64,000 nt of DNA from a virus (IMGVR_UViG_3300021373_002801:12581-76580), one strand, 5' to 3'; counted from the stretch's first letter, positions 263 through 60,200 are shown. A program made the numbers and translations. Notes: generated by a model from the sequence alone, not told the origin.

Positions 263-3200
263 ATGGCAGAGTTTTCAATTGATAGATTTAAGTATAACTG
301 GAAGGGTGATTGGACAGCTGGTGCAGACTATATAAGAGACGATGTTGTTAGAGTAAACGGTAAGTCTTATGTATGTATAGTAACACATACTGCAAGTGCT
401 GCTTTTAGAACAGATCAAGAAGCAACTGTTCCAGGATCAAGTCCACCAATTCCGCAACCTCGTTGGATTGTAATGACCAGCGGTAGATCTTTTGTAGGAA
501 ACTGGACTACTGCAACAGATTATAACACAGGTGATATTGTATTATTCCAAGGCTCGTTATATGTGTGTCAAGTAGCACATGCTTCTACAGATTTTCATAC
601 TGATGCTGAAAATGTTGATCAAAGTGTAAGTTCTACTACTGATAAATGGGTAATAATTGCAGTAGGTACAAAATATTTAATAGATTGGAGCAGTGGCACA
701 AGTTACGGATTGAACGCAATAGTAAAATATGGCGGCATAGCATACAAGAGTATCAAGGCGCATCTAAGCACAGATAATTTTGGTGATGATACGAAAAATT
801 GGGAGCAATTTTACAACGGGTACGAGTATAAAGGAGCTTGGGACACTACAACAGATTACAAAGTGAATGACCTTGTTAAGTACGGACCTTCTATTTTTAC
901 ATGTAATGAAGCACATACTTCAGGAGATACAGAATTAGACGACACAAAATTTTCAATTACATTTCCTGGAAGCCAATATGATAATGATTGGAATTCAACA
1001 ACACCTTATAACCAAGGGGATATTGTAAGATATGGCGGTAATCTCTACTATGCTGTAAATAACAACTTAGATAGTAATCCTGGTAAAGTTTTAGTAAGTG
1101 ATACTGAAGATAGCACGATTGATTGGATAGTATTAGCACACGGATATAATTTTAGAGGAACATGGGCCGGATATGACACAGGATATAAAACCGGTGATAT
1201 AGTACAACGTGGAGGACAACTGTTTATTGCTGTTAGAGATGTAAGTATAAGTGACGGTGATGGAAGTTCTTTAGATTACTTAGATGAAGAAGTTTGGACA
1301 AAACTTATGCCAGGCAAGATATTTGCTGGCCCTTGGAATCCTGGTATAATATATAGCGTAGGTGAAGTTGTAATTATTTACGGTGATAGCTATGTATGTA
1401 ACCAAGAACACCTATCAGCTGATAATAACTTTCCGGGCGATAACGGTAGTGGGTATGTTTATTGGGATTTATTGGTGCAAGCTGGCCAGCCAGGCGGATT
1501 ATTATATGCTGGAGACCTTTTAACATATGGAATAAGTAGGAATTTAGGTGTCGGTGCAGTGGGCGATGGATCAACTGTAGGTGATACTAGGTTAGCAATA
1601 GGTAAAACAGGCCAAGTTTTAAGTATAACAGACGAGTTGGAAGCCTATTGGAGGAATACAATAACTGATACAGACACTATATTTGTAGGAAGGCACGGAG
1701 TTGATACTACAGGATACGGAATTTCAAAAGAAAAGCCTTTTAGAACTGTTAGATATGCTGCACAGTATATAGAAGATAATTTTACACCACTAAAACCTAC
1801 AAAAATATCAGTGGCTACAGGTAGATTTGAAGAAGTAGGTCCTATAACTGTTCCTGCAGGTTGTGCCGTAGTAGGTGACGAACTCAGAGCTACTACTATT
1901 ATTGCATCTGGACCTAAAACAGCGTATTCAGGAACTTATATTACTGAACATTTTGCTGCAATCGACCATCTTACAACAATTATTTTTAATGTATTATCTG
2001 GAATTGCTGTAACACCGTTTGAAGGTAACACTGTGCAACAAAATTTAAAAACACCTCCAACAGATCTTGAGGCTGTAAACCTTTATGTTAATTTAATAGA
2101 TGATTATAAAAATTATATAAATTTTAGAATTGCATCTGGTGAAACTGATCCTGAAATTACAGGCAGTAACACACTTAACAGTGTAGAAAGAGTGAATGCT
2201 GGTACTGCAATTGAATTAAACAAAGATTTTTTAGCGGCAGAAGCGTATGCATTTTTGGTTGGTACTTATCCAGAAAATACATACGACGAAGTACAAGTAA
2301 AACAAGATATACTTTACTACTTACGTGGTACAAAAAGAGATGTACAATACGATGGCAATTACGCAATATGTTTTGCTGCTAGATATATAGCTAATAGTTT
2401 TACAGGATCACAAAATGACGATTTATTTTGGATGCGTGATACTACAGGATTAAGAAATTGTACAACTGATGGATTAACCGGAACGCTTAATCCTCCAGGA
2501 GTTTTTGCACAATATCAAAGACCAACAGGTGGTTCATTAGTTGCTCTAGATCCAGGATGGGGACCAGCAGACAATAGAACATGGATTGTAAACAGATCAC
2601 CATACTTACAAGGAGTTACAAATCTAGGAACAGCATGTGTAGGACAAAAAATTGACGGCGCATTGCACAATGGTGGCAATCGCTCAATGGTATCAAACGA
2701 TTTTACACAAGTGTTAAGTGATGGAATTGGTGCTTGGGTGTTAAATAACGCAAGAGCAGAGCTAGTTTCGGTATTTACATACTATTGTCAAGTAGGATAC
2801 TTAGCCGAAACAGGCGGAATTATACGTGCTACTAACGGAAATAATTCATATGGAACATTCGGCGCTGTGGCAGAAGGCAATAATCCAAATGAAGTACCAC
2901 AGTCTACAACAGTTAACAATCAACAAAACGAAGCTCAAGTAAAAAGTGCTATTGCTGGCGGAACTACAGATCAAATTTTAATATATGAATATACACACTG
3001 TGGCGAAGAATATAATACAGCTAGTTCAGACATTGTTGGTGCAGGCGCAGATGCTAAAGTTGAATTTTCAGACTTTAGAGATGGTGGACTATACGAAGCC
3101 AGGTTAATTAATACCACTGGATCTGGTAGTGAAGGCGGCTCTAATTATCTTATTAGACAAAATTCAGCACAGGTTACTATTCCAGCAACGGATAGTATAA

Positions 3201-5874: not shown

Positions 5875-7866
5875 ATGGCAGAATTTAAACTAGGTAGAAT
5901 TAGATTTGTATGGAAAAATACTTGGACTACAACTACTCAATATTTTCAAGATGACGTAGTTGCCTACGGCGGAAAAATATATATTTGTGTTATAGGACAT
6001 ATTGCTTCTGCTGATTTCTTTACAGATTTTGATATTAGTCCTCCCAAATGGAATTTAGTAAGTGACGGCCAGGCTTGGAAAGGTGAATGGCAACCTCAAG
6101 TAGATTATATTGTTGATAATATTGTAAGGTACGGTGGAAGATTATACATTTGCCAAACTAAGCATACATCAGCAGCAGATTCAACAACCGGATTAGAAGC
6201 AGACATTGCTAATTGGCAAATTTATGCAGAAAGTGTTGACTGGAAAGGTGATTGGTCAACAAGTTTTGACTATAAAGCCAACGACTTAGTAAAATACGGA
6301 GGCACAACTTATGTTTGTAATCAAAATCATATTTCTTCATCTACAGTATCAGCAGGATTAGAAGCAGATCTAAGTAAATGGGATATTTTTAATCAAGGAT
6401 TTGATTATAAAGGAACATGGACTGCATCTGTAAGATATAAAGTTAATGACGTTGTAAAATTTGGTGCAAACACTTGGATTGCAACAGCATATCACACATC
6501 TTCAGCAGCATTTGCAACAGATAGTAGCAATTGGACAAAATTTGTAGAAGGTTTCCAATACGAAGCACGATGGAGCGGACCAGCTTCATATCAACCTGGC
6601 GATATTGTATCATACGGCGGTAACCAATATATTGCAAAAACAGAAAATAGTGGACAGCGACCACCTACAAACAGCAGTGACTGGGATTTATTTTCTGAAG
6701 GTATTAGATTTATTGGACAGTGGGGAGATGACAGTACAAACTTTGAATATGAAATTGGAGATGTAGTTAGACACGGTGGATACACATATAAGGCAGTACA
6801 AGATCATACAGGACAACAACCACCTAATACAACATACTGGCAACTTTTTAACACTGGTATAGATTGGCGAGGCGCCTGGCTAGACGACCAGGAATATTTC
6901 TTAGGTGATGTTGTACGATACGGTGATAACTCATATATTTGTGTTTTAGGACATATATCAGAAGGTGACGACTTTTCAACAGTTGGTGATGCACCAGGCG
7001 GGTTTGACGGCGGTAATGAAAATTCAAGACCAGATCTAGATGCAACAGGTACATATTGGAACTTATTCAGTATTGGTAGCGAACAAAGTGTTCTTACAAC
7101 AGCAGGTGATTTATTATACTACGGTGGAGCAGGACCAACTAGATTACCTATCGGAACCGACGGACAAATATTACAAGTAGGTGATACTGGATATCCGGAA
7201 TGGGCAACAATAAGTGATGCTGATGACGTCTATTACGTAGCAGAACATGGTTCAGACAAGCCAGCACCTGTGTATGGCAAAACAGTTGATCGTCCTTGGA
7301 GATCAATTAGATACGCCGCACAGCAAGTAGAAAGAGGAACAAAAGCTTCTTCGGCTTGTAGGTTATTAGAATTAAATAGAAGATTTATTCAAAGAGAAAT
7401 AGTTGAATGGACTGACTATCAAATTGCAAATGGCACATCACCGTTTACTACATCGTTTGTATACGATAGTGCAAAATGCGAAAGAGATATGGGATTAATT
7501 ATCGATGCATTTATTTGGGACTTGGCACACGGTGGTAATGTGAGATCTAGAGAAGCTGCATTGAAATATGTCAACGAACCAGGAAGTTTTTACGTATTAG
7601 GGCAAAAGGAAGAAACTGTGGCGGCAATAAATTACGGACTAACATTGATTGAAAAAGTGCTTGCACAAACAGCACCAGCAGTTAATTATCAAACTACAAA
7701 CGGAGACAATTCTACAGCAATAGTTGCACAGTATTTTGAATCTGCATTAGGAAGTGAAGATAATGTAGAATATGAAAGTACAGTGACTGGGGGCAGTTCG
7801 ATTGTCGCAGTAAGCTCCGGCGGCGGCGGTGGATCCGGCGGTGGTGGTGGCGGAGGAGGCTACTAA
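5875..7866 (+). CDS. Virion structural protein; N-terminal half of a split homolog of 54295..61395
   Basis: 663 aa. First 41 nt identical to 54295..54335. CBM-like W/Y repeats. Ends in a Gly-rich tail ...GGGY with a TAATG stop/start overlap. Confidence 0.85.
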   Translation: MAEFKLGRIRFVWKNTWTTTTQYFQDDVVAYGGKIYICVIGHIASADFFTDFDISPPKWNLVSDGQAWKGEWQPQVDYIVDNIVRYGGRLYICQTKHTSAADSTTGLEADIANWQIYAESVDWKGDWSTSFDYKANDLVKYGGTTYVCNQNHISSSTVSAGLEADLSKWDIFNQGFDYKGTWTASVRYKVNDVVKFGANTWIATAYHTSSAAFATDSSNWTKFVEGFQYEARWSGPASYQPGDIVSYGGNQYIAKTENSGQRPPTNSSDWDLFSEGIRFIGQWGDDSTNFEYEIGDVVRHGGYTYKAVQDHTGQQPPNTTYWQLFNTGIDWRGAWLDDQEYFLGDVVRYGDNSYICVLGHISEGDDFSTVGDAPGGFDGGNENSRPDLDATGTYWNLFSIGSEQSVLTTAGDLLYYGGAGPTRLPIGTDGQILQVGDTGYPEWATISDADDVYYVAEHGSDKPAPVYGKTVDRPWRSIRYAAQQVERGTKASSACRLLELNRRFIQREIVEWTDYQIANGTSPFTTSFVYDSAKCERDMGLIIDAFIWDLAHGGNVRSREAALKYVNEPGSFYVLGQKEETVAAINYGLTLIEKVLAQTAPAVNYQTTNGDNSTAIVAQYFESALGSEDNVEYESTVTGGSSIVAVSSGGGGGSGGGGGGGGY

Positions 7867-10800
7867 TGGCAACAATATTTGAAACAATTACAAGTTTAAA
7901 CAAAATTATCACAGACGCTGTTACAGCTGGTGTAGCAACCGATATTCCATCAAGGATAATAAGAAATACATTAATAAAAGTAAGTACAGGAAAATACTAC
8001 GAAGTACTTCCTATAATTGTGCCTGCAGAATGTTGTATCATTGGTGACGAATTACGTTCAACAAATGTACAACCTCGTAAAGCAAGTAATTCTAGTTTGA
8101 CACCTACAACAGATTTTAATTATACCTATCATAGTCTTTCTCGCATAGAAGCTGTTATAGGCGATATTGTAAGCGGTGTATCAGTGACTCCGACAACTGG
8201 TAACACTCGAACACAAGTCAGAAGCTGGCCGTATGCAGAAACAGAAGGACCTAAAAAAGCTGCAAAGCAACTTGCAAGAACAATTAGAAGAAGAGTAGAT
8301 ATTGGTTTAGCAGATAAGTTTGAAGCAAATTTAACACCTTCTTATGATATGGATGATCCTAATTACGGTTATGCAAGAGAAGCATTAAAATTAAATAAAA
8401 AGTTTTTACAAGAAGAAGTAATTGCATACATTAAAGCTAACTATCCAAATTTAAATTATAGCAGAACCAAATGTAAACAAGATACAGGTTTTGTAATTGA
8501 TGCGATAGGATATGATTTAACTTATGGTGGAAATTGGCAAACTGTTAGAGCCGGCGAAGCATATTACGAAGGAACTAATTTACAAATTAATTCAAGTGAA
8601 AAAACTGCAACTGTTGCAGCCTACGGATATCTAAAAAGTATAGCACAAAGTGTGAGTAGAAATACTCCAGTGACTCCTGTATTAAATACTGTGACAACAC
8701 AACTAACTCCTCCAAAAGTAGGATCTGTAGCAGCCGCAACTACTATTGCTGGGTTGTTTGATGACTTTATTAATATTGTTAATACTGGATCAGGAGCTGA
8801 AACTATTGTTTATCCTCCATTAACTAATGTAAGTCAATCATTACAAGATGCAAGTTTAACATTAGTTAACGCCAAAGCATCTGTACAAAAAACAACAATA
8901 GATTTTATTAACGGACATTTTGGAAATTTCCAATATAATAGTGCAAAGTGTCGTAGAGATTTAGATAATATTATCACAGATACATCTTATGATGTTGCAT
9001 TAGGCACAAATTATAATGCAGTATTTAATGGCAGAGCATACAATAGACCTAATAATAATTATAATTTACAAACACAAAGAATAGAAACAGTTGGTGCAAT
9101 TAGAAATGCAAGAGATGAGTTGAAAATTAGTGTTACTACTGACGGTTCATCAGCAGTAGGTTCAAGCAATGCAAGTACAAGAATACAAACAGCTTATGAT
9201 GAAATTGTTGACATGATAAACAATGGCCTTGATGCAGAAAATGCATTAAGTTTTCCAAGCCCTACTGGCGTAGATCAAAATAGAGTTGATGCAAAAGATA
9301 ATCTTATTGCAAACAGAACTTTTATACAAGAAGATACAGTAGCATATGTTAATAATACCTACGGATCATTAGTATACAATGAAGGCAAGTGTAAACGTGA
9401 TGTTGGTTACATTGTTGATGCTTTGTGTTATGATATATTATATGGCGGAACACAAGCCACTACAAGAATTGCAGAAAGTTATTTTGTTGACGGTAATACT
9501 CAAGTTTACGGTCAAGAAACAGAAACTGTTGCTGCATACAACCATGCAAAAAGTATTATCGGAGACATTGTAAAAGAAGTAAGTGTAACAGCTCAAAGCG
9601 GACATACAGAGCTTCAAACAACACCCGGTACTCCTGCAACTGCAACAGAAGAAACAGAACTGGATGCAAAAATTGATATTATTACTGCGGCAATCACTGC
9701 TGGTAATTTAAACAGTTTGCCTGCTCCTGTCTATCCTAGTATTACATGGGCAGATGCAGAATACGAAGTGGCACATTCAAATATTTTAAGCGATAAACAA
9801 GATGTAATTACAAGTACAATACAGTTTATTAATACAACTTATAATACAACATTTAATTATAATCAAGCTAAGTGTTCAAGAGATATCGGTTTGCTTATAG
9901 ATGCAGCACGATATGATTTTATGCTAGGAACAAATTTTGCTAGTATTAATGCTGGTTTAAGTTATTTGAGAGCTCCTAGCAAAAAAGTATTAGGATTACA
10001 AAAAGATGCGACACTAGCGGCTAACGAATATGTTCGTACACAATTAGTCGCAGCAGTAGCAGGAAATGCAACAGCAGTAGCCGGAATAAACGATGGATGG
10101 GATTGGATACAAGACATTATCTTTAGTGGTAGTAACGAAGGAAGCATAAACCAGACAACTGACATAGAGGCTTATAATGCCATAAGGCAATTAGAGCTAA
10201 ACAAAGAATTTATAGTAGATGAAGCACTAGCATTTGTAGATAACAAGTTTAAAGATACTGTACTAGGTATGGTAATGACCGAAGAGCTTGGACCTCCGGT
10301 TGTAGACGGACAATTTATTATCAGCGACACAAGTTGGATGTTTGAAGGCATGCCAATTAAATTTACAGCAGGAGATGACAGTTCTGATTCTGTAGAAAAT
10401 GCTAATTTAGTTGAAGATCAAACATACTACGTAAAGCATATTTATAGTTCTACAAACTTTAGTATAAGCGAAACACAGTACGGCACACTATACTCAACTA
10501 CAAATTGGGGTCAAGGATTCCAGGTTGAGAAAGTTTATAATTATAATCGTGCTTTATGTCAACGTGATGTAAGAGAACATATTGATGCAATCAAATGGGA
10601 TATGACTTGGCCACAAGAACAATTTAGGACTTATAATAAATTTGGCTTTGACGTATCACTTTACTTACCAGGCATGTATAGAACAAATCTTGGAGCAAGG
10701 TATTATGTTAATAGTGTAATCGGATCACAAGAAGAAGATTTCTATTACCTACGTAACGGAACTGGTTTGAGATTGCAAACATTGGAAGGCCTACAGGGAG

Positions 10801-13800
10801 ATCTTGGACCTGCAAATACTTATGGCACAAGCCGACCAACAGCGGGTGCTTATGCATCGTTGGATCCAGGTTGGGGACCAGACGATACAAGAGTCTGGAT
10901 TACAGCACGTTCACCGTATGTACAAAACTGTACAACATTTGGTTATGCAGCAGTTGGTCAAAAAATTGATGGCGCATTACATAACGGCGGCAACGATTCG
11001 ATTGTTAGCAACGACTTTACACAAGTTATATCAGATGGTATAGGTGCATGGATTACAAACAACGGTAGAGGCGAACTTGTTTCGGTGTTTACATATTACT
11101 CACATGTAGGTTATTTGTGTGAGGCAGGCGGACGTATGAGAGCTACAAACGGAAACAACTCATATGGTAAATTTGGATCAGTTGCAGAAGGAGTAGATGC
11201 TGAAGAAACTCCAGTTACAGCAATAGTTGACAACGAGAAACAATATAGAGCAGTCATTGCTAATGTGTTTACAGATGCTGCAAATGAAATACTACAATTA
11301 GAATATTCACATGCAGGAAATGATTATACCGAAGCACAAATAGATATATTTGGTGTAGGTGACAGTGAAACTCTAGTACAAGATGAATTTAGAGATCAAG
11401 GTGTCAATCAAGTAAGAATTATTGAAGTAGATGATTCTACAGGAAATCCAGATGCAACAGCAGGTGGTAGTGGGTATTTACAAGTTACAAACACTGCACA
11501 GACTGGTGATTCAACTAGCTTAACAATAGCAGCTACTGACGGTAGTGCAAGTAGTGCATACATAGGCATGAAACTTTATATTACTTCAGGTGCAGGAGTT
11601 GGATTGTTTGGTATTGTAGATACATACAATTCAGGATCTAAAGTTGCAACTGTTGTAAAAGAATCAGATGGTACAGCAGGTTGGGATCACGTTGTTCCAG
11701 GAACAACATTTGTATCTCCTAATAGTTCATCAATTTACTTGATTGAACCTAGATTGTCATTTACTGGGCCATCTAGAACAGACACTACACACACTATTAC
11801 TAGTGATGTTTGGAACGATGTAAAATTTGTTGAAACATCTGCACAATATAATAATCAAAGTGTTACAACACAAAGTGACGGGGTAAATGCTACATTTGAT
11901 GTTGTTAGAAATGGTTCAAAATATTACGTATCATTAAATTCAGGCGGAACAGGCTACACTAGATTAGATACTGTTACAATACCTGGAACTAGTGTAGGCG
12001 GAGCAACTACAACTAACGATATAACAATAACAATTACAACAGTGAATAGTTCGACCGGTGCTATTGAAGAATTTGACATTGATGGAACAGGACAAAAAGG
12101 TGTATATGTTGCACTACCAGATGGCGGAACAGGAGCACAAACATCAATAGACGGTGCTACTTGGACAAGTTCAACATTGGCAACTAGTGCAGATTATAAA
12201 CGTGTAAGCAACGGTTTGATAGATGATGGTTCAACTACATTCAAACAAAGTTATGCAATAGCAGTTGGGATTACAGGCGGAGCAACAGTTGTAAACTATA
12301 GTTTAAATGGTACAAGTTGGACTGCACCTGGATCACAACCTTCGCTTACAGCGGCAACATATGCTGATACAGCATTTGGACAGATTAATTCAAATACTGG
12401 TAGATTCATAATTATTGGTGATGGCGACAGAGATGTTTCATACTCAGATGATGGTGGCGCTTCCTGGACAACAACTTCAAACGCTTTACCTAGCACAGGA
12501 TTTAGTTCCGTAGCTTACGGGCAAGGAAAGTTCGTTGCTGTAAAACGTGCAGCACAAAATGTTGCATACTCAACAGACGGTGTTACTTGGACTGAAGTTG
12601 CATCAGGTCTCCCTGCAGCAGATGATTGGGAAGATATAACATACGGTAAAGGTAGATTCTTTGCTATTGCAACTGACACAAGAAATGGTGCATTTAGTTT
12701 AGATGCAGGAGCAACTTGGACACAACAAGCCATTACAACAGGCGGCTCTAACACAGCAACACCAAAACGTATTGCTTACGGACAAGGTGTATTTGTTGTT
12801 ACAACAACTGACACTAACGAGCTATCATATAGCGAAGATGGTGTATACTGGCCTACTCCTTATGCAATTACAGGTGCAACATATACAGGTGGACTAAATG
12901 CAGTTGGATTTGGAAATAATAATAGTGATCCAAAATTTGTAGCTATACAAACAGGAACAACTACAGCAGTTGGTAACTTTAACATAGGCTGTACTACAAA
13001 AGCTAGAGCTAGTGTTGCAAACCAAAAAATATTCGCAGCAAGAATTACAGAGCCAGGATCAGGTTATGGAAGCACTGCACCTACAATGACTATAACTGAT
13101 CCAAACAATATTAACGAGGCATTATTTACTGTTAGATTAAACAACGGTATATTAGGACAGCCAACATTTATTGCTAGAGGTAATGGTTTCATATCAGCTA
13201 GTGGTGAAATAAACACAGACAACAGCAATGGTTTTGCTGATTTCCTACAAGACGGACAATTTGTTGCAGTTAGACAACTATCAGCTGTTCCTGTAAATGG
13301 TTCAAACGTTGTGTTTGATAGCTTACCGGGGACTGTATTTAAACTTGTTAACGTAGTTAGTAGAGTTGGTACAAAAGACGGTTCTTATACTGCATTCTTA
13401 CAATTATCACCTAATATGGAAATTGAAGATGCTGTACCTAACGGTGACGGTGTTACTATGCGTATTAGATTTAGTCAGGTACGTCTAACAGGACACGACT
13501 TCTTAGATATTGGTACAGGAAACTTTGACGATACAAATTATCCGAATAATGTTTACGGAGATCCAGTTAATACTCCATCGCAGTTAAATGAAACAGTAGC
13601 ATCGAACGGTGGTAGGGTATTCTTTACAAGTACTGACCAAGATGGTAACTTTAGAGTGGGCGATTTGTTTAGTATTGAACAGGCAACAGGTGTTGCGACA
13701 TTGAATGCAGATGCATTTAACATTGCAGGACTTCAAGAATTATCACTAGGTGAAGTTACACTAGGCGGAAACTCTGCAAGTGTTACAGAATTTAGTACAG

Positions 13801-14048
13801 ATCCTTTCTTTACTGCAAACAGTGATAATATTGTACCTACGCAACGTGCAATTAAATCATATATTGAGGCACAAATTGGTGGTGGTGGTGCATCACTAGT
13901 AGTTAACAGTGTAACAGCTGGCGACATCTTTATTAATAGTACACAAATTACTACGGTAAGTGGCGCAACGATAAATATAAAAGCAAATGTAAACTTTACA
14001 AAAAGTGTATTAGGTTTACCACTGGCTTATAATTACTTTTTAAGATAG
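7866..14048 (+). CDS. Giant virion structural protein; C-terminal half of the split homolog of 54295..61395 (beta-helix with inserted helical KCxRD repeats, Asp-box propeller region)
   Basis: 2060 aa. GGAGG at 7855-7859 precedes the ATG. Ends VLGLPLAYNYFLR, identical to the end of the 2366-aa ORF. Confidence 0.85.
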   Translation: MATIFETITSLNKIITDAVTAGVATDIPSRIIRNTLIKVSTGKYYEVLPIIVPAECCIIGDELRSTNVQPRKASNSSLTPTTDFNYTYHSLSRIEAVIGDIVSGVSVTPTTGNTRTQVRSWPYAETEGPKKAAKQLARTIRRRVDIGLADKFEANLTPSYDMDDPNYGYAREALKLNKKFLQEEVIAYIKANYPNLNYSRTKCKQDTGFVIDAIGYDLTYGGNWQTVRAGEAYYEGTNLQINSSEKTATVAAYGYLKSIAQSVSRNTPVTPVLNTVTTQLTPPKVGSVAAATTIAGLFDDFINIVNTGSGAETIVYPPLTNVSQSLQDASLTLVNAKASVQKTTIDFINGHFGNFQYNSAKCRRDLDNIITDTSYDVALGTNYNAVFNGRAYNRPNNNYNLQTQRIETVGAIRNARDELKISVTTDGSSAVGSSNASTRIQTAYDEIVDMINNGLDAENALSFPSPTGVDQNRVDAKDNLIANRTFIQEDTVAYVNNTYGSLVYNEGKCKRDVGYIVDALCYDILYGGTQATTRIAESYFVDGNTQVYGQETETVAAYNHAKSIIGDIVKEVSVTAQSGHTELQTTPGTPATATEETELDAKIDIITAAITAGNLNSLPAPVYPSITWADAEYEVAHSNILSDKQDVITSTIQFINTTYNTTFNYNQAKCSRDIGLLIDAARYDFMLGTNFASINAGLSYLRAPSKKVLGLQKDATLAANEYVRTQLVAAVAGNATAVAGINDGWDWIQDIIFSGSNEGSINQTTDIEAYNAIRQLELNKEFIVDEALAFVDNKFKDTVLGMVMTEELGPPVVDGQFIISDTSWMFEGMPIKFTAGDDSSDSVENANLVEDQTYYVKHIYSSTNFSISETQYGTLYSTTNWGQGFQVEKVYNYNRALCQRDVREHIDAIKWDMTWPQEQFRTYNKFGFDVSLYLPGMYRTNLGARYYVNSVIGSQEEDFYYLRNGTGLRLQTLEGLQGDLGPANTYGTSRPTAGAYASLDPGWGPDDTRVWITARSPYVQNCTTFGYAAVGQKIDGALHNGGNDSIVSNDFTQVISDGIGAWITNNGRGELVSVFTYYSHVGYLCEAGGRMRATNGNNSYGKFGSVAEGVDAEETPVTAIVDNEKQYRAVIANVFTDAANEILQLEYSHAGNDYTEAQIDIFGVGDSETLVQDEFRDQGVNQVRIIEVDDSTGNPDATAGGSGYLQVTNTAQTGDSTSLTIAATDGSASSAYIGMKLYITSGAGVGLFGIVDTYNSGSKVATVVKESDGTAGWDHVVPGTTFVSPNSSSIYLIEPRLSFTGPSRTDTTHTITSDVWNDVKFVETSAQYNNQSVTTQSDGVNATFDVVRNGSKYYVSLNSGGTGYTRLDTVTIPGTSVGGATTTNDITITITTVNSSTGAIEEFDIDGTGQKGVYVALPDGGTGAQTSIDGATWTSSTLATSADYKRVSNGLIDDGSTTFKQSYAIAVGITGGATVVNYSLNGTSWTAPGSQPSLTAATYADTAFGQINSNTGRFIIIGDGDRDVSYSDDGGASWTTTSNALPSTGFSSVAYGQGKFVAVKRAAQNVAYSTDGVTWTEVASGLPAADDWEDITYGKGRFFAIATDTRNGAFSLDAGATWTQQAITTGGSNTATPKRIAYGQGVFVVTTTDTNELSYSEDGVYWPTPYAITGATYTGGLNAVGFGNNNSDPKFVAIQTGTTTAVGNFNIGCTTKARASVANQKIFAARITEPGSGYGSTAPTMTITDPNNINEALFTVRLNNGILGQPTFIARGNGFISASGEINTDNSNGFADFLQDGQFVAVRQLSAVPVNGSNVVFDSLPGTVFKLVNVVSRVGTKDGSYTAFLQLSPNMEIEDAVPNGDGVTMRIRFSQVRLTGHDFLDIGTGNFDDTNYPNNVYGDPVNTPSQLNETVASNGGRVFFTSTDQDGNFRVGDLFSIEQATGVATLNADAFNIAGLQELSLGEVTLGGNSASVTEFSTDPFFTANSDNIVPTQRAIKSYIEAQIGGGGASLVVNSVTAGDIFINSTQITTVSGATINIKANVNFTKSVLGLPLAYNYFLR
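13970..13977 (+). promoter_or_regulatory. Late promoter-like box GATAAATA embedded in the 3' end of the CDS
   Basis: About 85 nt upstream of 14061. Conserved at the equivalent position of the paralog (61317). Confidence 0.55.
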
Positions 14049-17405: not shown

Positions 17406-18542
17406 ATGGCAGATTTAAAAAATACAACAATAGGTACAACAAATGCAGTTGAACTTCCGGATCAAAATTTATCAGCTACAACAGGTTCTGCAAAACTTAG
17501 ATTTAACACTACTGGTAGTTTAAATGCATTAGAGTTTTATGATGGATCAAATTGGAGACCTGTGACAGGATACAGTCAAGGTATTGTAGGTACAGGCGGA
17601 CAAACTATTAACTATACTGATCACGGTATTGTGCATATATTTACTACCACAGGAAACCATACATTTACACCATCTTTTACAGGTAATGTACAAGTAATGG
17701 TAGTAGGTGGCGGTGGTGCTAGTGGTTATGATTGGTCCGGCGGTGGCGGCGGTGGTGGAGTTATCTTTAACAGATCATTTCCAGTAAGCGCAGGCAGTGG
17801 TTATAATGTTACAGTAGGTGCAGAAGGCCGTGGAGGAAACGGCGCAGGAGGATCACCTACGATTGCAGGCCAAAACGGAGGTAATAGTGTATTTTCAACT
17901 ATAACTGCTCAAGGCGGTGGCGGAGGTGGCTCTTGGCGTAACGGTTCGCCACAGGGTTATGATAATGGACACTCGTCTGGACGTACAGGTGGATCAGGCG
18001 GTGGCGGCAGTAATTCTAGAGACGATGGAAGTAGGCGTAGACACTTAGGTGGCAGGGATACAGACGGTCAAGGTTATCCAGGTGGATCTGGTGTTAGATT
18101 TAATGCTAATAGTGAAAACGCTCACTTAGGTGGCGGTGGTGGTGGAGCCGGCGGCGGCGGCGCAAGTGCACCTGACGGTCGTCAAAACTATAGAGGAAGT
18201 TTTCGTGGAAATCAAATTTCGGGCGGAGCAGGCCGTGCTACAGACTTGCTTGGTGGAACATTATATTTTGGTGCTGGCGGAGCAGGTGGTGGACACCTAG
18301 GTTGGAATGTTAATGGCAATGCTGGAGGCATTGGCGGTGGAGGTGGAGGTAGTTTCCATCACAGCGGACCTTATGGTGGACCAAGAAAGATTGGCCAAGG
18401 TGGCGGACAAAGTCTTAATAACGGCCAAGATGGATTTCCAACAGCACGTGGCGGCTCAGGCGGATCACACACCGGCAGCGGTGGCGGTGGCGGACAATGG
18501 GGATATCCAGGCGGTAACGGTGTTGTTATAGTTAGATATTAA
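17406..18542 (+). CDS. Glycine-rich adhesin/tail-tip-like protein 3
   Basis: Same architecture as protein 1; ends GNGVVIVRY. Confidence 0.75.
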   Translation: MADLKNTTIGTTNAVELPDQNLSATTGSAKLRFNTTGSLNALEFYDGSNWRPVTGYSQGIVGTGGQTINYTDHGIVHIFTTTGNHTFTPSFTGNVQVMVVGGGGASGYDWSGGGGGGGVIFNRSFPVSAGSGYNVTVGAEGRGGNGAGGSPTIAGQNGGNSVFSTITAQGGGGGGSWRNGSPQGYDNGHSSGRTGGSGGGGSNSRDDGSRRRHLGGRDTDGQGYPGGSGVRFNANSENAHLGGGGGGAGGGGASAPDGRQNYRGSFRGNQISGGAGRATDLLGGTLYFGAGGAGGGHLGWNVNGNAGGIGGGGGGSFHHSGPYGGPRKIGQGGGQSLNNGQDGFPTARGGSGGSHTGSGGGGGQWGYPGGNGVVIVRY

Positions 18543-20107: not shown

Positions 20108-20825
20108 AGGGACATCCTTTTAATTTTGCTAGACTTTTATATCTTTCGTTTAATGGTCTAAATGTATGTTCGTTACGTATATTATTGCATAATTTTATAT
20201 CTTCCCATGGACACTTTTGTTGTTGTAGTTTTACAATATTATCACTGTAAAATTTAAAATATGCAATAGCATCGCCTTTTTTGATTTTAATTTTATCTTT
20301 TATTTTTTTACATTCAAATACAATTTCAGCAGGTCTTGTCCATTTTGCAATGTCAAACTCGCCAGGATATAATGTTGTTTTGTCTGTAAAATCGTTGTAG
20401 TGCAAAAATGCAGGTAGCATTTGCATTTGCATACTGTCTGATGTTTGGAAAATATTTAACCAATCAATACCTATCATAGGATATACATTCTTTCCACGTT
20501 GACTATCAAACAAAAATCTGGTGTCAATTAAACAATTAAATTGTTCTTGATTAAGATTAGGACATGTAATTTTTACATCACCAGTTTTTTCATTTACATC
20601 TATTTCAATAGTAAGATCGTATGGAGCATGAAACACAAACATATTCTTTATGAAGTCTGTATGTGCTGGACACTTTAAAACAATATTTCCTTTACGTTCG
20701 CTAATATAAGTTTTTTGTAGAGGAACTAAAACATCTTGCGAATTATCTAACAAATCAATTAAACACGCAGGATGGTCTATATCCCATTCACTGCTGGTTA
20801 TAAACGACCAATTAATTAATGCCAT
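20097..20825 (-). CDS. Hypothetical protein (KCPA...KKGDAIA motifs), co-transcribed with halogenases
   Basis: 242-aa ORF overlapping both neighbouring halogenase genes on the same strand. Confidence 0.7.
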   Translation of the reverse strand: MALINWSFITSSEWDIDHPACLIDLLDNSQDVLVPLQKTYISERKGNIVLKCPAHTDFIKNMFVFHAPYDLTIEIDVNEKTGDVKITCPNLNQEQFNCLIDTRFLFDSQRGKNVYPMIGIDWLNIFQTSDSMQMQMLPAFLHYNDFTDKTTLYPGEFDIAKWTRPAEIVFECKKIKDKIKIKKGDAIAYFKFYSDNIVKLQQQKCPWEDIKLCNNIRNEHTFRPLNERYKSLAKLKGCPYEQ

Positions 20826-22287: not shown

Positions 22288-22309
22288 ATATTGTATCCTT
22301 TGTTTAATG

Positions 22310-22317
22310 TACTTATA
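22310..22317 (-). promoter_or_regulatory. Late promoter-like variant TATAAGTA (minus strand), overlapping the plus-strand box
   Basis: Reverse complement of tacttata, upstream of the RBS of the 22287 gene. Confidence 0.45.
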
Positions 22318-22321
22318 AATA
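22314..22321 (+). promoter_or_regulatory. T4-type late promoter TATAAATA
   Basis: Exact T4 late consensus, 5 nt before ATG 22327. Confidence 0.7.
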
Positions 22322-22326
22322 TTGCT

Positions 22327-22902: not shown

Positions 22903-22905
22903 AAA

Positions 22906-24738: not shown

Positions 24739-24742
24739 ATGA

Positions 24743-26824: not shown

Positions 26825-26850
26825 TTTAGTATTTTCCTTTTAATGTTAAC

Positions 26851-26858
26851 AATAAATA
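26851..26858 (+). promoter_or_regulatory. Late promoter-like box AATAAATA
   Basis: 5 nt before ATG 26864, the same spacing as at 22314. Confidence 0.6.
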
Positions 26859-26863
26859 TCTGT

Positions 26864-48325: not shown

Positions 48326-51300
48326 ATGGCAGAATTTAAACTAGAAAGATTTAAGTACAATTGGAGAGGTGACTGGGTAACAGGAACAGCATACAAACGT
48401 GACGACATAGTAAGAGTCAGCGGCAAGAGTTATGTTTGTATAATTACTCACGCAGCAAGTGCAAACTTTAGAGATGACTTAGATGCTATCCTTCCAGGTT
48501 CAGTGCCTCCCCAAGCATTACCTCGATGGACAGTAATGACAAACGGTTTTAGTTTTGTCGGAGATTGGCAGGAAAATACAGTATATGATTTAGGCGATAT
48601 AGTAAAGTTTCAAGGTTCTCTATGGAGATGTACTATAAATCATACAGGATCGTCATTTGCAGGTGATATAGCTAATTGGACAGCATTTAGTCAAACAACG
48701 AGTTTTGTTGGTCCTTGGGCTTCGTCTACCTCGTACGCAGCAGGCGCAGTTGTAAGTTATAACGGAAATGCTTATAAATGTCTAACTGCTCACGCATCGT
48801 CGTCAACACTAGAAGATAATATAGACGATTGGGAATTATATCGAGCAGGCACAGCTTGGGTTGGCGAGTTTGCCCCAAGCACAGTATATAGAATAAATGA
48901 TCTTGTTAAATATGGCGGGACTATATTTCGTTGTATAGAAACACATACATCAGATACAACACTAGACGATACTAAATTTACTGTAGAAATATTTGGTAGT
49001 GAATATAACGGAGTTTGGAATAGTACTACAGTTTATAACATAGGAGATATTGTAAGACACGAAGGATTCTCATATTACGCAGTTAATAATAACACAGACT
49101 CTAAACCATATATTAGTTCCGACGGCGGAAGCACTGATTGGATAGTACTATCTAAGAATATAAATTTTGTAGGCTCCTGGACAGTTGACGGTGTTTATAA
49201 AACAGGTGATGTAGTATTGAGAGGCGGCAACTTGTATCTTGCATTGAGAGATATCGGTGGAGTATACGAAGAATCAGGTGGCGGTGATGGCATTGAAATT
49301 AATAGAACACTAATATCAGGAGAATTGCTAGACGGTAGTACACTTGATTATTTAGAAGCCGATACGTGGGAACTCTTAATACCAGGCAAAAGTTTTAAAA
49401 ATTATTGGAGTAGTGGAACAACATACAGTGTTGGCGATGTAGTATTATTTAAAGGAACAGCATATACTTGTAATACAGAACACGCAGCTAGTTTTGTAAA
49501 TTTTCCAGGTGATAACGGCAGCGGATATGAATATTGGACTATTTTAATCCAAGCTGGCCAACCTGCTGCACTCGAAGTTAAAGGTGACTTATTAACCTTT
49601 GGTCCTAATAGACAAATTGACAGTGCTGGTGACAGATTACAAGATGGAAGTACTGTTTTTGACGACAGTAGTTTAGGTGATACTAGATTAGGTATCGGAA
49701 ATAATGGACAACTATTATCAGTGTCGTCTGATCTAGAAGCGTTTTGGAGAAATATACAAGAAGATGCCGATTCAATATGGGTTGCAACTAACGGTATAGA
49801 TGACGAAGATAGAGGAACGTTTCAAAAACCATTCCGTACAATTAGATACGCAGCAGAATATGTAGAAGATACCTTTGCTGCAGGCACACCAGTAATTATT
49901 AGAGTAAGTACAGGGAAATTTGAAGAAGTATCGCCAATCGTTGTTCCGGCAGGCTGTGCAATTAACGGAGACGAACTACGTTCTACTACAGTATTAGCAA
50001 ATAGCCCTATCACAAAATATTTAGATAACTATCAGTATGCAACTGCATATTTTACACATTTTACATCTATAATAGCTGATATTGTAACAGCACAAGAGAT
50101 AGTCCCTCAAACCGGAAATGAAGAACCTCAAGTGCGACAAATATTAACACCTATCATAGATGAATCTACAGGAGAACAAGCAGTAGATCAGATTACCGGT
50201 GAACTTCGATTTAATGATTCATTTCCGGCATCAAATATAGCAGGAGCTAACTTAGTACTTGATTTAATAACTGATTGGAAAAACTATGTAGAATTTAATA
50301 CAGCCGACGGCGAAGTATCGCCTACTTTAGTAGGTTCTAATACTTTAAATAGTGACTTTACAATTAGTAATGCTGGTGAAGCATTACATCTTAATAAGAA
50401 ATTTATAGCGCAGGAACTATTGTCATATTTACAAAATACTTACCCTGCTGTTACATTTGATGAATTACAAATTAAAAACGATGTAAAACATTTTTTACGT
50501 GCAGCTAGAAGAGATACAAAGTATTCAGGAAATTATGCTACACTACTTTCAGCACAACGATATGCTAACTCAATTAAAGGCAGCCAAACAACAAACTTAT
50601 TTTATATGCGAGACACTACTGGCTTAAGAGATATAACCACTGGCGGCTTACAAGGCGTATTAAATCCACCGGGTGTATTTGAATTGTATCAAAAGCCAAC
50701 AGGCGGAGCACTTGTAAGTCTTGATCCAGGTTGGGGGCCAACGGACGAACGAACTTGGATTACTACACGTTCGCCATACATACAAGGTGTTACAAACACC
50801 GGGTTTGGATGTGTAGGGATGAAAGTAGACGGTGCGCTACACAATGGCGGTAATCGTTCAATGACAGCTAATGACTTTACACAAGTATTAAGTGACGGCA
50901 TTGGTGCGTGGATTACAAATAATGCTAGAGCAGAACTTGTATCTGTATTTACTTACTACTGTCAAATTGGTTATTTTGCAGAAGACGGCGGAATTATTCG
51001 AGCAGCAAACGGCAACAACTCGTACGGACGTTATGGGTCAATTGCAGATGGCATTGATGATACTGAAGTACCACAGATTACAGAAGCATTTAACAGGAAT
51101 AATCAAGCAACAGTATCAGAAGCGTTTGCAGGTGGCGCAACTGACGAAATTAAAATATTTGAATACTCAAATGCAGGCGAAGAATATACAACTGCTAGTG
51201 CAACTATAACAGGTGCAGGTGCAAATGCTAGTGTAGAATATACTGATTTTAGAGATGGCGGCCTATTTGAAGAAAGATTAATTAGTGCAGACGGATCTAG

Positions 51301-54294: not shown

Positions 54295-57200
54295 ATGGCA
54301 GAATTTAAACTAGGTAGAATTAGATTTGTATGGAAGGGTGACTGGACAGCAGCAAATGTCTATTATCAAGATGATGTAGTTGCATTCGGCGGAAAAACTT
54401 ACATATGTACAATTGGACATACAAGTCAAGCAGGATTCTTTTCAGACTTTAATATTGTTCCCCCAAAATGGAATTTAGTATCAGATGGTCAAACTTGGAA
54501 GGGAGCGTGGTCAACTGAAACAGATTACGTAGTAGATGATATCGTTAGCTACGGTGCAAGACTCTATATTGCAAATACTGCGCATACTAGTGCTGCTACT
54601 GCTATAGACGCTACAGATGGACTAGAAGCAGACCTTAGTAAATGGGACGCTTATGCCGAAGGACTAGACTGGCAAGGTGATTGGTCTACGTCTACTAGAT
54701 ATAGAATCAATGATTTTGTAAAATACGGTGGCTCAACTTATGTTTGTAAAACACTACACGTTTCAACTGCAACTGCCGCAGATGGATTGGAAGCTGATAT
54801 TTCAAACTGGGATACGTTTAATCAAGGTTTAGAATATAAAGGCGAGTGGACAAAAACTACAAGATACAAATATAATGATTTAGTACGTTACGGAGCAGGC
54901 GTCTGGATTTGTACTACTGCACATACTAGTACATCTGATTTAGGAACAGATTCTGCAAACTGGAGTCAATTTGTAGAAGGTTTCCAATACGAAAACGATT
55001 GGAGCCCTTACAGAAGCTATCAACCAGGTGATGTTGTTCGTTACGGTGGCAACCAATATATTTCAAGAACTAATCATTCAGTAATTACTCCAGGACCGCA
55101 GAGTGGAGTAATTACCGGTATAACACAAGATACAACAGCAACAGTAACAAGTACAGCTCACGGATTACAAGATACTAGACAGATTGTAATTAATGATGTA
55201 GTAGGTATGACCGAAATTAACGGACTAACTTTATACATAGATGTAATTAGTGTAAACACGTTTGATTTATACACAGATGCAGAATTAACAACACCATTAA
55301 ATACAACAACATTTACAACATATACTTCAGGCGGCAAATACACTTCGGAATCACCAACTGACTGGGATCTATTTTCAGAAGGTTTTAGATTTATAGGAGA
55401 CTGGAATGAAGATAGTGCTAATCAACATTATAAAGTAGGCGAAGTTGTACGCTTAGGCGGATTTACTTACTTATGTATTTTAGATCACGAAGAAGGACAG
55501 CAACCGCCAAACGCAACTTATTGGAAATTACTCAACGAAGGTTTCCGTTGGAGAGGCGAGTGGTTAGACGACCAAGAATATTATGAAGGTGATGTTGTTC
55601 GTTACGGTGACAACAGTTACTACTGTACTTTATATCATATTTCAGAAGGTGACGACTATTCAACAGAAACTCCACTAGGCGCTGGTGGCGGAGCAGAAGG
55701 CTCGCGTCCAGATCTAGCAGATAGTGGATCATATTGGAGTGTACTCGCAGTTGGTTCGGAAGCTAGTGTTCTTACTACAGCAGGCGACTTAGTTTACTAT
55801 AGTGGAAGTGCTCCTACAAGACTGCCAGTTGGATTAGAAGGACAAGTACTAACAGTAGATTCAACTGGAATTCCTAACTGGGAGTTTTTACAAACTATTG
55901 AAGACATTTATTATGTATCAGAACACGGTATTGATAGACCATTTCCAGAATCAGGAGGAAGTGTTGATAGACCATTCAAATCAATAAGATATGCTTGCGA
56001 ACAAATCGAACAAGGACCTAAAAATCCTAATGCACAATACCTATTAGAATTAAACAGAATTTTCATACAAGAAGAAGTTGGATCTTGGATTAATTATCAA
56101 ATTGCAAACGCTGGTGGATCGGGTATCTGGAATAACTTTGTATACGGTGAAGATAAATGTAAGCGTGACGTTGGAAATATTGTTGATAGGCTTATATGGG
56201 ATATTGGCCACGGCGGCAACTTAAAATCAAGAGCAGCAGCACTTTCGTTCGTAAACGGATTTAGTGCAGATGGTGAATTTTCGGCAGCATCAGAAGATAA
56301 GCCGTACGGCGGCGCTGGACTAGCAGCAGAGTCTGCACAATCAGTTGCAGCATATAATTATATGCTAACTGTGATTGATGCAATTCTTAAAAACCAAGCT
56401 CCAACATTAATTTATCAAAATGTATCAGATGACAGTACAGCTATTGTTACACAGTTTACAAGTGCAACACTTACATCAGAAACAGGTGTTTATACCAAAA
56501 TACAAAGTTTAGTTAAAATTATTACTGACACAATTACAGCAGGTGATACTAGCGCAATTCCAGCTCGTGATGTTCCTCAAACACTAGTTAAAATATCTAC
56601 AGGAGAACATTATGAAGTTCTACCAATTAGAGTACCAGCATACTGTGCTATACTAGGGGACGAACTACGTTCAACGAAAATTATTGCTGCTGGAGCAACA
56701 ACACCAGCAACAGACACACCAAATACTGTAGCAACATTTGATAGAATTGCTGAAGTTGTAGGTGATGTAGTTGTAGGAACAACGGTAACTGCTTCTGTTG
56801 GTAATGTTGAGCCACAAGATCAAAACTGGCCATATGCTATAACTGCACAAGAAAATGCTGTAGAAAGTCTAGTTGATATGATGAAATATCAAATTGACTA
56901 TGGACTAAAAACTATGAGCGCAGGCTACTATACAGATCCTACGGGATATAGCTCAAGTTTAGAAAATGCTAGAGAAAATCTTATAGCAAACAAAGACTTC
57001 TTAAAAGCAGAAGTAATTGCGTTCTTAGATACAGAATATCCAACACTAAAATATGGAAAAACTGATAGTCGACGTGATACTGGATTTATTATCGATTCGT
57101 TAATTTATGACTTAACATACGGCGGCAATTCAATGGCTGTAATAGCTGGGCTATCATATTGGGACGGAGACGACGAAACATATGATCAACTTCCAGCTTC

Positions 57201-60200
57201 TTTGAAGACAGAATGTGTTGCATCGATTAACTACTTAAAAACTACAGCACAAAGTGTTGCAGGTAATACAAATGTTACAAATCCTAAACAAACAGCAATA
57301 CTACAAGTAGAAACAGGTAACGTAGGTAGCATTACTGAAATTGCAAACAATATAGAAGATATTGTTGATATTATTAACAACGGTCCAGACGCAGTTGGCG
57401 ATACAACTACATTAGTTAATCCTACACTTGCAGACGGTGTTAACTCAACTACAGCATTAATTGCTGCTAAAGGTGCATTAGACACTGCTACAGCTGGAAT
57501 TAAAACAGATACAACTAGTTGGATTACTGCTAACTTCCCTGCACTTGTGTACAATAGTGCTAAGTGTGAAAGAGATATTGGCAAGATATTAGAAGCAGTA
57601 GGATTTGACTTTGCACTAAACAGTAACTACAGAACACTTAAAGCAGCACACGCATACTTACGTAAAACTGCTTTAGAAGTATATACTGGTGGACAAAAAA
57701 CTGCAACTAGACAAGCAATTCAATATGCACTCTTAGATGCAACAGACGGCGCTATTGCAAACGTTGCAAGTGATGCAACTGCTATTGCAAGAATTACTGC
57801 AAGTGCTAGAATAATTGATGCAGTTATATTTGGTGCTACTGACGAAGGTGCTGTATGTGCATCTGAAGATCAAAATAGATATTATGCAAAACTACAGTTA
57901 GAACGTAACAGAGACTTTATTAAAGCTGAGATTGCAGCTTGGATTGATGTTCAAATTGCTGGTGCTGCAAGTGGAAGCATTTGGGATGGATATACATACA
58001 ACGAAACTCTTTGTCAAAGAGATATTGATTATTATATCGATGCGTTAAAATATGATCTAATGTGGACAGGAAATTATGCTTCAAGATACGTTGCACGTTT
58101 TTACAATAATAGTGTAACAGGATCTCAAGAAGAAGATATGTTCTATCTAAGAGATGCTACAGGAGTAAGAAACTGTACTCTCAACGGATTAAATGGACAA
58201 CTTCTTCCAGAAAACGCATATAACTATAGTAAAGTAAGTGCAGGCGCATATTGTTCATTAGATCCAGGTTGGGGACCAGACGATTTCCGTACTTGGATTA
58301 TTACACGTTCGCCATACATACAAGGTGTTACAACATTTGGTAATGCTGCAACTGGTCAAAGAATTGATGGTGCGTTGCATAATGGCGGTAATGACTCAAT
58401 GGTGTCAAATGACTTTACCCAGGTCATAAGTGATGGTATTGGCGCACACATTCTTAACAATGGTAGAGCAGAACTTGTGTCAGTGTTTACATATTACTCA
58501 CACATTGGTTATCTTGCAGAAACAGGTGGTAGAGTACGTGCTACTAACGGTAACAACTCTTATGGTGACTTTGGTTCAGTAGCAACAGGTGTTGACCCAG
58601 ACGAAACACCTGTAACAGCGATAGTTGATAACCGTACACAGTATAATGCAACTATTTCAAAAGTTAACACAGACAATGCACAACTATTAACTGTTGAATA
58701 TACACACGCAGGTAATGATTATACTGAAGCTAATCTTAGTATATTTGGGCCAGGTTCTAATGAAGTAGTAGTTGTAGACGAATTCCGTGACGGCGGGTTT
58801 AACTATGCTTATGTTGACCAAGATGCAAATCCAGATATTGCATTAGGCGGCAGCGGATATGTAATATCAAGTAACGTTGCACAAAGTGGTAGTTTAACTG
58901 GAATATTCCTTAGTGCTACTGACGGTTCATTAAGTTCAGCTTATCCTGGTATGAAAATTTATATCATAGGTGCAGCAGGAATTGGACAATATGCAATTAT
59001 TAACACATACAACGCAGGTACAAAAGAAGCAACAGTTATAAGAGAATCAGACGGAGTTGCAGGCTGGGATCACATAGTTCCAGGTACACCTATTGTTGCT
59101 CCAAATAGTAGTTCAACATATCAAATTGAACCAAGAGTTACAATTACTGCTCCTACAAACTCAAGCGGCAATATTACAATGCCAACATCAACTACTTGGT
59201 ACGATGTTGAATGGATTCAAACAGCAGCACTGCAACCAGGAAGAAGTCCTTCAGGTGGCGACGGATCAGGAGCACAATTTGATGTTACCCGTAACGGAAG
59301 TAAATATTATGTAAGTGTTGATGTAGCAGGTACAGAATATTCAAGACTTGACACATTAACTATTCCAGGTACAGACATTGGCGGAGCAAGTCCAGCTAAC
59401 GATATTACAATAACTGTAACAACAGTAAACAGCGTAACAGGTGCTATTGTAGATTTTGACTTTACAGGAACTGCGCAGGCAGGTAAATTCCTTGCAGTTG
59501 GAGCCGGCACTAACGGTGCAGTGAGTATCGATGGCGAAACTTGGACAGCAGAAGTATTACCTACTTTACCAAGCGGAAATTGGGCAAGTATTGCAGACGG
59601 TTTACAAGATGATGGTTCAAGTACATTCCAACCAAGTGCAGTTGTAGTAATTGCAGACGGTGACAGTACAGTGGCGTACAGTAATGATGCTAATACTTGG
59701 TCAACTAGTTCACTACCAGGATCGTTTAATGCAACAGGTGAAAATACCATAGCATTTGGTCAAATTGCTGCTGCTACAGCAAGATTTGTTGTTATTAGTG
59801 ACGCAGATCAAGATGTTGCATATTCAGATAACGGCGGACAAACTTGGAGCATAACTGGCACAGCACTTCCAGCAAATGGTTTTGGTGAAATGGTATACGG
59901 CGCAGGTAAGTTTGTTGCTATTAACAGCGGAACAACAAGTGCAGCATATAGTACAGATGGTATTACTTGGACAGGTGTAACGGCACCGGCAGCATTTGCA
60001 GCAGTAACAGATATTGTATGGGGTAATGGTAAGTTTGTGGCACTTGGTGGTACAAATGGTATTATGTACTCATTAGATGGTATAACTTGGTATGAAAATG
60101 CACTTACACTTCCACTAACTGCTACAGAACGCAAACTAGCGTACGGACAGGGTACATTTGTTATCTCAAGTGATGACACTGATCAAGTTCAATACAGTCA

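Follow-up and report, generated by a model that had tools for sequence, protein, structure and literature searches.

In cyanobacteria, red algae, and cryptophytes, phycobiliproteins act as subunits of the light-harvesting antenna. Their X-Y helix pair builds the alpha-beta monomers, and lyases of the CpeS type form the class serving Cys-84. ApcE carries one phycobiliprotein-type domain, with a loop insertion and a Cys that is placed differently, and it attaches its own bilin without a separate lyase. Here we describe a domain family of this kind in phages. We analyzed 64,000 nucleotides from a virus (IMGVR_UViG_3300021373_002801:12581-76580), in the following termed the window. It forms the final 64 kb of an IMG/VR virus record that is 76.6 kb long and rated 21% complete by CheckV. 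The window is a tail-appendage region of a large uncultured marine T4-like phage, and its giant fibre-type genes encode repeated helical domains that are very probably homologous to phycobiliproteins. No description of phycobiliprotein-, phycocyanin-, or globin-like domains in phage or cyanophage proteins was found in a literature search. What is new is the molecular context, that of phage fibre/baseplate-type proteins, in which this family of phycobiliprotein-derived domains is found.

The window was found to contain 12 copies of the domain in five open reading frames (ORFs), with one copy in ORF B, five in ORF C, four in ORF G, and one each in ORF A and ORF F (Table 1). Ten copies were counted as being of the Cys type and two as Cys-less. 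Pairwise identity among the copies was 26-33%, and a profile built from them recovered each copy with E-values between 1e-46 and 1e-61, which is far past chance. The repeat is thereby confirmed as a real domain family. The initial annotation of this DNA had listed six Cys codons in ORFs B and C. All six positions were exact, and each lies in a C-x-[RQ]-D motif; the repeat sequence quoted with them was traced to residues ~477-600 of the 2060-aa protein. The proposed spacing of 147-161 aa was found for three intervals in the 2060-aa protein (159, 147, and 161 aa) but not for the last, which measures 228 aa because the fifth copy (C5) holds an insertion of ~90 aa. This insertion separates helix 2 from the Cys helix. 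The four copies in ORF G and those in ORFs A and F lie beyond the range that had been annotated.

Single sequences matched phycobiliproteins weakly. Against the phycobiliprotein family PF00502 the whole 2060-aa protein scored 12.8 bits, a single copy 13.6 bits, and a six-frame translation 12.6 bits, none of which reached the gathering score of 22.2, and only two of nine copies gave any match. With phmmer, a single sequence matched a phycocyanin alpha chain at an E-value of 0.19. A profile built from nine window copies gave 31 matches in the PDB, 30 of them to phycocyanin alpha (best E-value 0.0026). When the profile was extended to 55 copies by including eight viral contigs related to the window, hmmsearch returned 37 PDB matches of which 36 were phycobiliproteins (best E-value 3.6e-5). 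The phage domain was finally aligned by hhalign to an alignment of 32 phycobiliprotein genes from cyanobacterial genomes, comprising CpcA, CpcB, Apc, and CpeB types. This resulted in a probability of 94% and an E-value of 1.4e-7 over 100 columns, where phage positions 8-109 paired with phycobiliprotein positions 37-145. In the HMMER as well as the hhalign alignments Cys44, Arg46, and Asp47 of the phage domain were in register with Cys84, Arg86, and Asp87 of the phycobiliproteins. Because the significance grows with the depth of the profile (0.0026, 3.6e-5, 1.4e-7), we consider the homology to be true rather than a product of chance.

A reciprocal six-frame search of 61 cyanobacterial genomes with the phage profile matched only ORFs of ~170 aa. 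The six loci checked were each the alpha gene of a beta-alpha phycobiliprotein pair, and G001 was assigned likewise by overlap. The domain profile scored CpcA at 18-25 bits, compared to 0.7-11 bits for other phycobiliprotein classes; judged by sequence, phycocyanin alpha is the closest class. No family naming the domain was found in Pfam, NCBIfam, or PHROGs, and NCBIfam had none for the proteins either. A back-translated motif search for genuine cpcA-type genes in viral contigs found none, which speaks against phages carrying ordinary phycobiliprotein genes.

An AlphaFold2 model of copy C3, made with an alignment of 55 sequences, consists of six helices with a mean pLDDT of 95.4 and a pTM of 0.90. 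In a Foldseek search of the PDB approximately the first 50 places were all taken by phycobiliproteins, with TM-scores of 0.65-0.71 over ~155 columns. We also used VIA-align, which is independent of Foldseek, on 48,161 representative chains. The top eight matches were to phycoerythrin, allophycocyanin, and the phycobiliprotein-like domain of ApcE with Z between 15.1 and 12.3 (best match 5aqd_M, Z 15.1, 139 residues, rmsd 2.7), followed by globin-coupled sensors, photocobilins, and RsbR at Z 8.8-11.4; these scores count only beside the sequence evidence, because unrelated helical models can reach a Z of ~14. The model of C3 has a globin-like fold of the phycobiliprotein type and not that of another helical bundle. 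The structural alignments begin at phycobiliprotein residues 25-30 and the hhalign alignment at residue 37, and the six helices of the model include no additional N-terminal hairpin that could correspond to the X-Y pair. The phage domain therefore represents the globin core without the X-Y helices.

A profile search of 1.84 billion representative proteins returned 1,519 proteins with E-values up to 0.001. Many of these are very large, at 2,000-6,400 aa, and contain as many as 36 matched stretches, and the matched proteins that were looked up are metagenomic. Conservation was determined from ~1,600 copies contained in the best 150 proteins, which are at most 50% identical. Cys44 was kept in 94% of these copies, Arg46 in 94%, and Asp47 in 98%; Asp58 (99%), Tyr74 (98%), Thr90 (86%), Gln120 (85%), and Tyr39 (83%) were also highly conserved. 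Conservation within the family is highest at the bilin site of helix E (Lys-Cys-x-Arg-Asp), and the copies of the cultured cyanophages S-PM2 and P-HM1 retain the motif. The proposal of phycobiliprotein-related domains with a globin fold, made in the initial annotation, is thus met with agreement from profile methods, fold search, and Cys conservation.

The domain was found in a narrow group of phages. A block of four copies, searched by tblastn against 50,697 phage records, matched 112 records, namely 80 Synechococcus phages, 23 entries named "Cyanophage," eight Prochlorococcus phages, and one "Marine virus." The whole 2366-aa protein encoded by ORF G additionally matched Pelagibacter, Pseudomonas, and Gordonia phages, and a megablast of the repeat region against the phage records gave no match. 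In BFVD the 21 fold matches with E-values up to 0.001 were cyanophage, uncultured-phage, or unnamed entries, with no named phage of a non-cyanobacterial host among them; more cyanophage entries followed to about rank 35, with noise below. Among cultured phages, the domain was found only in cyanophages.

The proteins carrying the domain in cultured phages are annotated as virion components. S-PM2 has a 3,338-aa carrier, S-PM2p091, annotated as "tail fiber protein," and a second one of 3,779 aa annotated as "short tail fiber protein," the gene of which adjoins gp12. The carrier in P-HM1 is the 4,446-aa gp7 baseplate protein. A virion location of the domain-bearing proteins in the window is suggested by PHROG tail-fibre matches of the giant proteins together with these annotations of their S-PM2 and P-HM1 homologues. 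The S-PM2 RefSeq record holds 16 tRNA features inside the coding sequence of the 3,779-aa protein (NC_006820.1, 168556-173383), all under the same locus tag, which looks like an annotation or coordinate error.

We ran two profiles on 28 genomes, one for the domain and one from Pfam for the phage lyase CpeT (PF06206). Domain and CpeT were found together in 16 genomes (S-PM2, S-RSM4, Syn1, S-WAM2, G006, Syn9, Syn19, Syn33, S-SM1, S-SSM5, S-ShM2, P-SSM4, P-SSM7, P-RSM4, P-HM1, and P-HM2), the domain alone in three (S-BM3, DSL-LC03, and B23), and neither in nine (P-SSM2, P-SSM5, S-SM2, S-SSM7, Sf-FS3, S-CRM01, S-TIM5, P-SSP7, and Pelagibacter phage Mosig). No genome had CpeT alone. S-ShM2 and P-SSM7 are weak CpeT cases that pass the cut-off once the pieces of the match are summed, and both were previously listed as CpeT-like (Sullivan et al., 2010, Table 3). 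The co-occurrence of cpeT and the domain gave p = 3.2e-5 in a Fisher exact test uncorrected for phylogeny, a value that overstates the evidence because the genomes are related and were not randomly drawn. In five genomes, S-PM2, S-RSM4, Syn1, S-WAM2, and G006, cpeT adjoins the giant domain-bearing gene. With the S-PM2 CpeT as query, cpeT was located 1-2 kb upstream of a giant gene in all 20 informative loci (56-100% identity), and the giant ORF downstream of such a cpeT encodes four to five domains on the same strand. The role of phage cpeT "remains unresolved" (Sullivan et al., 2010).

Two forms of CpeT were observed. A long form of ~183 aa, with one full-length Pfam match, is encoded next to the giant gene in the five genomes where the genes adjoin. 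A short form of 135-160 aa, in which the Pfam match falls in two pieces, is present in Syn9, P-SSM4, P-HM1, and others; its gene is remote from the giant gene, at genome positions of about 14-20 kb. In S-PM2 a 2OG-Fe(II) oxygenase gene (165307-165888) lies between cpeT and the giant gene, a position that recalls the oxygenase array beside the fibre genes of the window.

Adsorption to the host is light-dependent in some of the phages carrying the domain. In the dark, P-SSM2 and the podovirus P-SSP7 adsorb but P-HM1 and P-HM2 fail to do so, and S-PM2 adsorbs in a light-dependent manner that is independent of photosynthesis (Liu et al., 2019, PMC6628666). We found four copies of the domain in P-HM1, five in P-HM2, and nine in S-PM2, and none in P-SSM2 and P-SSP7. 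This match is a lead and not a test, as it comprises five phages of about four lineages.

Based on this analysis we estimate a probability of about 0.45 that the domains bind a bilin covalently, which is the mechanism we prefer in view of the homology, the conserved site, and the links to cyanobacterial hosts, to cpeT, and to light. Each domain would hold a linear tetrapyrrole that comes either from the infected cyanobacterium or from enzymes of the phage; a thioether bond would join this bilin to the conserved Cys, with the Arg/Asp pair keeping it in place. In phages that have a CpeT lyase, this enzyme would deliver or attach the bilin, and chromophores would form an array on the mature fibre or baseplate. 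More speculatively, light absorbed by the bilins could change the conformation of the fibre or baseplate, with the result that some cyanomyoviruses adsorb only in light. It is unlikely, in our estimate, that the domains form a bilin-bearing photoreceptor array in baseplate or fibres that gates adsorption by light, and the suggestion that such an array might be the "light-sensitive tail fibre" behind the light-dependent adsorption of S-PM2 and P-HM1/2 is speculative. If true, this would be the first case of a virus particle with a built-in light sensor, and a function would be found for cyanophage cpeT.

A number of observations weigh against covalent bilin binding. The correlations with cpeT and with adsorption rest on few independent lineages: when supported clades were collapsed, the four classes of genomes (both, domain only, CpeT only, neither) were reduced to roughly 4/2/0/8, with p ~0.015. 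A gp59 tree made for counting independent events had unresolved deep nodes and lacked eight of the genomes, and sampling of IMG/VR cyanomyoviruses via gp59 yielded almost only small fragments. No cpeT (PF06206) was found in the 76.6-kb record or in 15 related fragments, all of which are at most 21% complete. The three genomes with the domain alone were found to have neither CpeT nor a CpeS-type lyase, and a search for the latter (PF09367) in these three genomes, S-PM2, and P-HM1 gave none. The lyase-free attachment in ApcE provides a precedent for domain-bearing phages without CpeT. T-type lyases are known for the beta-153-type site and not for the Cys-84 to which the phage Cys aligns. Their site is the Cys-153-type site of beta subunits (PMC10452541). 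Bilin reductase genes (PF05996) were dropped as a correlate of the domain, since they do not track it.

Further points against bilin binding come from the domain itself. Some window copies have lost Cys and/or Arg and are nevertheless retained. Asp58 and Tyr74 are polar invariants specific to the family, without phycobiliprotein counterpart, and inside the domain they might pair with Arg46 and Asp47 in a network of purely structural purpose. Alignment to phycobiliproteins is confined to the first ~100 columns, and the C-terminal half is divergent. In phycobiliproteins the C-terminal half of the core forms the other wall of the bilin cleft. The corresponding half of the modelled phage domain holds an ordered loop of 23 residues (105-127), which could fill the cleft.

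Pelagibacter phage Mosig was found to encode a ferredoxin-dependent bilin reductase (MT647606.1, 39713-40231; PF05996, E-value 1.5e-18). It has neither the domain nor CpeT, and its host makes no phycobiliproteins.

The most likely alternative, which we regard as a realistic possibility but less probable than bilin binding, is that of structural reuse only. Without a chromophore, the captured fold would then act as a rigid helical spacer or would decorate the proteins of fibre and baseplate, and the conserved Cys, Arg, Asp, Asp58, and Tyr74 would form an internal polar network. The presence of up to 34-36 copies per protein resembles arrays of spacer domains, and Asp58 and Tyr74 lie on or near the helix face of Cys44 and Asp47. 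The persistence of Cys-less copies in the window, the three domain-bearing genomes without a phage lyase, and the lack of conservation with phycobiliproteins in the C-terminal-helix half of the bilin cleft also fit with this explanation. However, 94% of the copies retain an unpaired Cys although the proteins are extracellular and the copies otherwise ~25% identical, which is unusual for a spacer, and the conserved residues are exactly the chromophore contacts of the parent family. A spacer would also leave aside that only phages whose hosts make bilins carry the domain, and that cpeT is never found without it (0/16) and is adjacent to it in several lineages.

That the Cys serves other chemistry in a re-purposed pocket, or that the pocket binds a ligand other than a bilin, we find improbable. 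Such chemistry could be an internal Cys-Gln thioester for covalent attachment to the host, metal or redox sensing, or cross-links between subunits. Conserved Gln is found at profile position 120 (85%) and at position 86 (54%, with Glu in 39%), and relatives with a globin fold bind other ligands, as seen for heme sensors and photocobilins (Z 9-11). On the other hand, neither Pfam nor PDB searches gave any similarity to a thioester domain, and Gln120 is absent from several copies that keep the Cys. This explanation also leaves the retention of Arg-Asp, which is homologous to the bilin contacts, the restriction to cyanophages, and the link to CpeT unaccounted for.

The absence of any common ancestry, with motif and helical fold resembling phycobiliproteins by convergence or chance, would fit the weak single-sequence matches and the high Z scores frequent for helical models, but is strongly disfavoured by E-values that improve as the profile deepens, by matches in register along 60-100 columns, by a reciprocal search in which all ORFs checked were phycocyanin-alpha genes, and by two structure searches that agree across the whole domain.

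The organization of the giant genes in the window is given in Table 1. ORF B encodes N-terminal repeats resembling CBM5/12 (seven stretches matched by PF02839 in Pfam, E-value 2e-40), followed by the first phycobiliprotein-like domain and a Gly-rich tail. ORF C continues with five phycobiliprotein-like domains; beyond them lie a core that is conserved, repeats of the BNR-like type, and the fibre region at the C-terminus. The protein had been described as split in the initial annotation, in accordance with which ORFs B and C are colinear with the unsplit paralogue ORF G. The TAATG overlap and the preceding GGAGG were found conserved in five related contigs (L001-L005), and the split therefore represents a genuine gene fission rather than a sequencing error. 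The two ORFs are translationally coupled, and the Gly-rich tail that ends the first one varies in length. For the flanking region after the last repeat, where a beta-helix was in question, the AlphaFold model had a pLDDT of 32.9 and was unusable, and Pfam and PDB profile searches matched nothing.

Two partial matches, at 56707-56904 in ORF G and at 1940-2122 in ORF A, cover the C-terminal half of the domain profile only and directly follow a G-D-E-L-R-S-T motif. They may be remnants of another copy or a shared helical element.

Table 1. Giant fibre ORFs of the window and the domain copies they contain.
Feature	Position	Strand	Description
ORF A	263-5848		1861-aa paralogue, one domain copy
ORF A copy	2177..2626	+	Cys and Arg both absent
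ORF B	5875..7866	+	663 aa; first half of split fibre gene
Copy B	7333..7809	+	K-C-E-R-D, Cys codon 7477
Stop/start overlap TAATG	7862..7868	+	GGAGG 7-8 nt upstream; kept in L001-L005
ORF C	7866..14048	+	2060 aa; second half of split fibre gene
Copy C1	8352..8801	+	K-C-K-Q-D, Cys codon 8472; Gln replaces Arg
Copy C2	8826..9254	+	K-C-R-R-D, Cys codon 8949
Copy C3	9261..9725	+	K-C-K-R-D, Cys codon 9390; copy used for structure model
Copy C4	9744..10145	+	K-C-S-R-D, Cys codon 9873
Copy C5	10152..10760	+	L-C-Q-R-D, Cys codon 10557; insertion of ~90 aa, about 10257-10535
ORF F	48326-54238		1970-aa paralogue, one domain copy
ORF F copy	50360..50794	+	Cys and Arg both absent
ORF G	54295..61395	+	2366 aa; unsplit paralogue of B+C
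ORF G copy 1	56014-56577	+	Cys 56158
ORF G copy 2	56944-57414	+	Ser in Cys position, 57067
ORF G copy 3	57445-57837	+	Cys 57565
ORF G copy 4	57859-58338	+	Cys 58012

Other genes of note were observed in the window. Five tryptophan-halogenase-like genes are located between the fibre genes on the minus strand (18539-30505; PHROG 2928, E-values 1e-102 to 1e-145). A GroEL-like chaperonin gene (34735-36429; PHROG 5725, E-value 2e-134) lies directly 5' of the second set of fibre genes. The protein of 1303 aa encoded at 37770-41681 has a start that by eye looks like a subtilisin-type protease, with Asp, His, and Ser motif blocks, followed by fibre-like repeats.

Altogether, the family places a known fold in a new context, where a single protein can hold up to 36 copies and about 1,500 distinct proteins from metagenomes have the domain, and it is carried by phages that are cultured and sequenced (S-PM2, P-HM1/2, S-RSM4, Syn1, and S-WAM2). 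It bears on the question of why cpeT is present in most T4-like cyanophages while the remainder of the host operon is not, and on how some cyanomyoviruses adsorb only in light, independent of host photosynthesis. Pigmented or not, the domain is a host photosynthesis protein turned into a building block of the virion, and it may help to flag uncultured cyanophages.

Compared to the alpha subunits of phycobiliproteins (CpcA/RpcA, PF00502), the phage domain has the same globin-like fold over its whole length, the same size of ~155-160 aa, and the same helix-E site, K-C-x-R-D-x-G-[YF] followed by G-G-[TN]. It differs by being arranged in tandem inside giant fibre/baseplate proteins of 2,000-7,000 aa instead of forming free antenna subunits, by lacking the X-Y helices, and by remaining below the Pfam gathering score. 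Its divergent C-terminal half, with the long ordered loop, and its own invariants Asp58 and Tyr74 also set it apart. CpeT of cyanophages is a possible partner and not a relative of the domain, which is present in 16 of 16 genomes with CpeT. Sensor globins, the RsbR N-domain, and photocobilins share the globin-like fold class (Z 8.8-11.4), which they use for signal perception, and photocobilins bind a bilin; their structural scores are lower, no sequence similarity to them could be detected, and they lack a C-x-R-D site. ApcE resembles the phage proteins in holding a phycobiliprotein-type domain within a large multidomain polypeptide, with a Z of 13.7 for 4xxi_A and 12.6-12.9 for full-length chains. 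In ApcE, however, the domain is followed by linker REP domains and belongs to the phycobilisome core, whereas the phage domain is part of proteins assigned to the virion.

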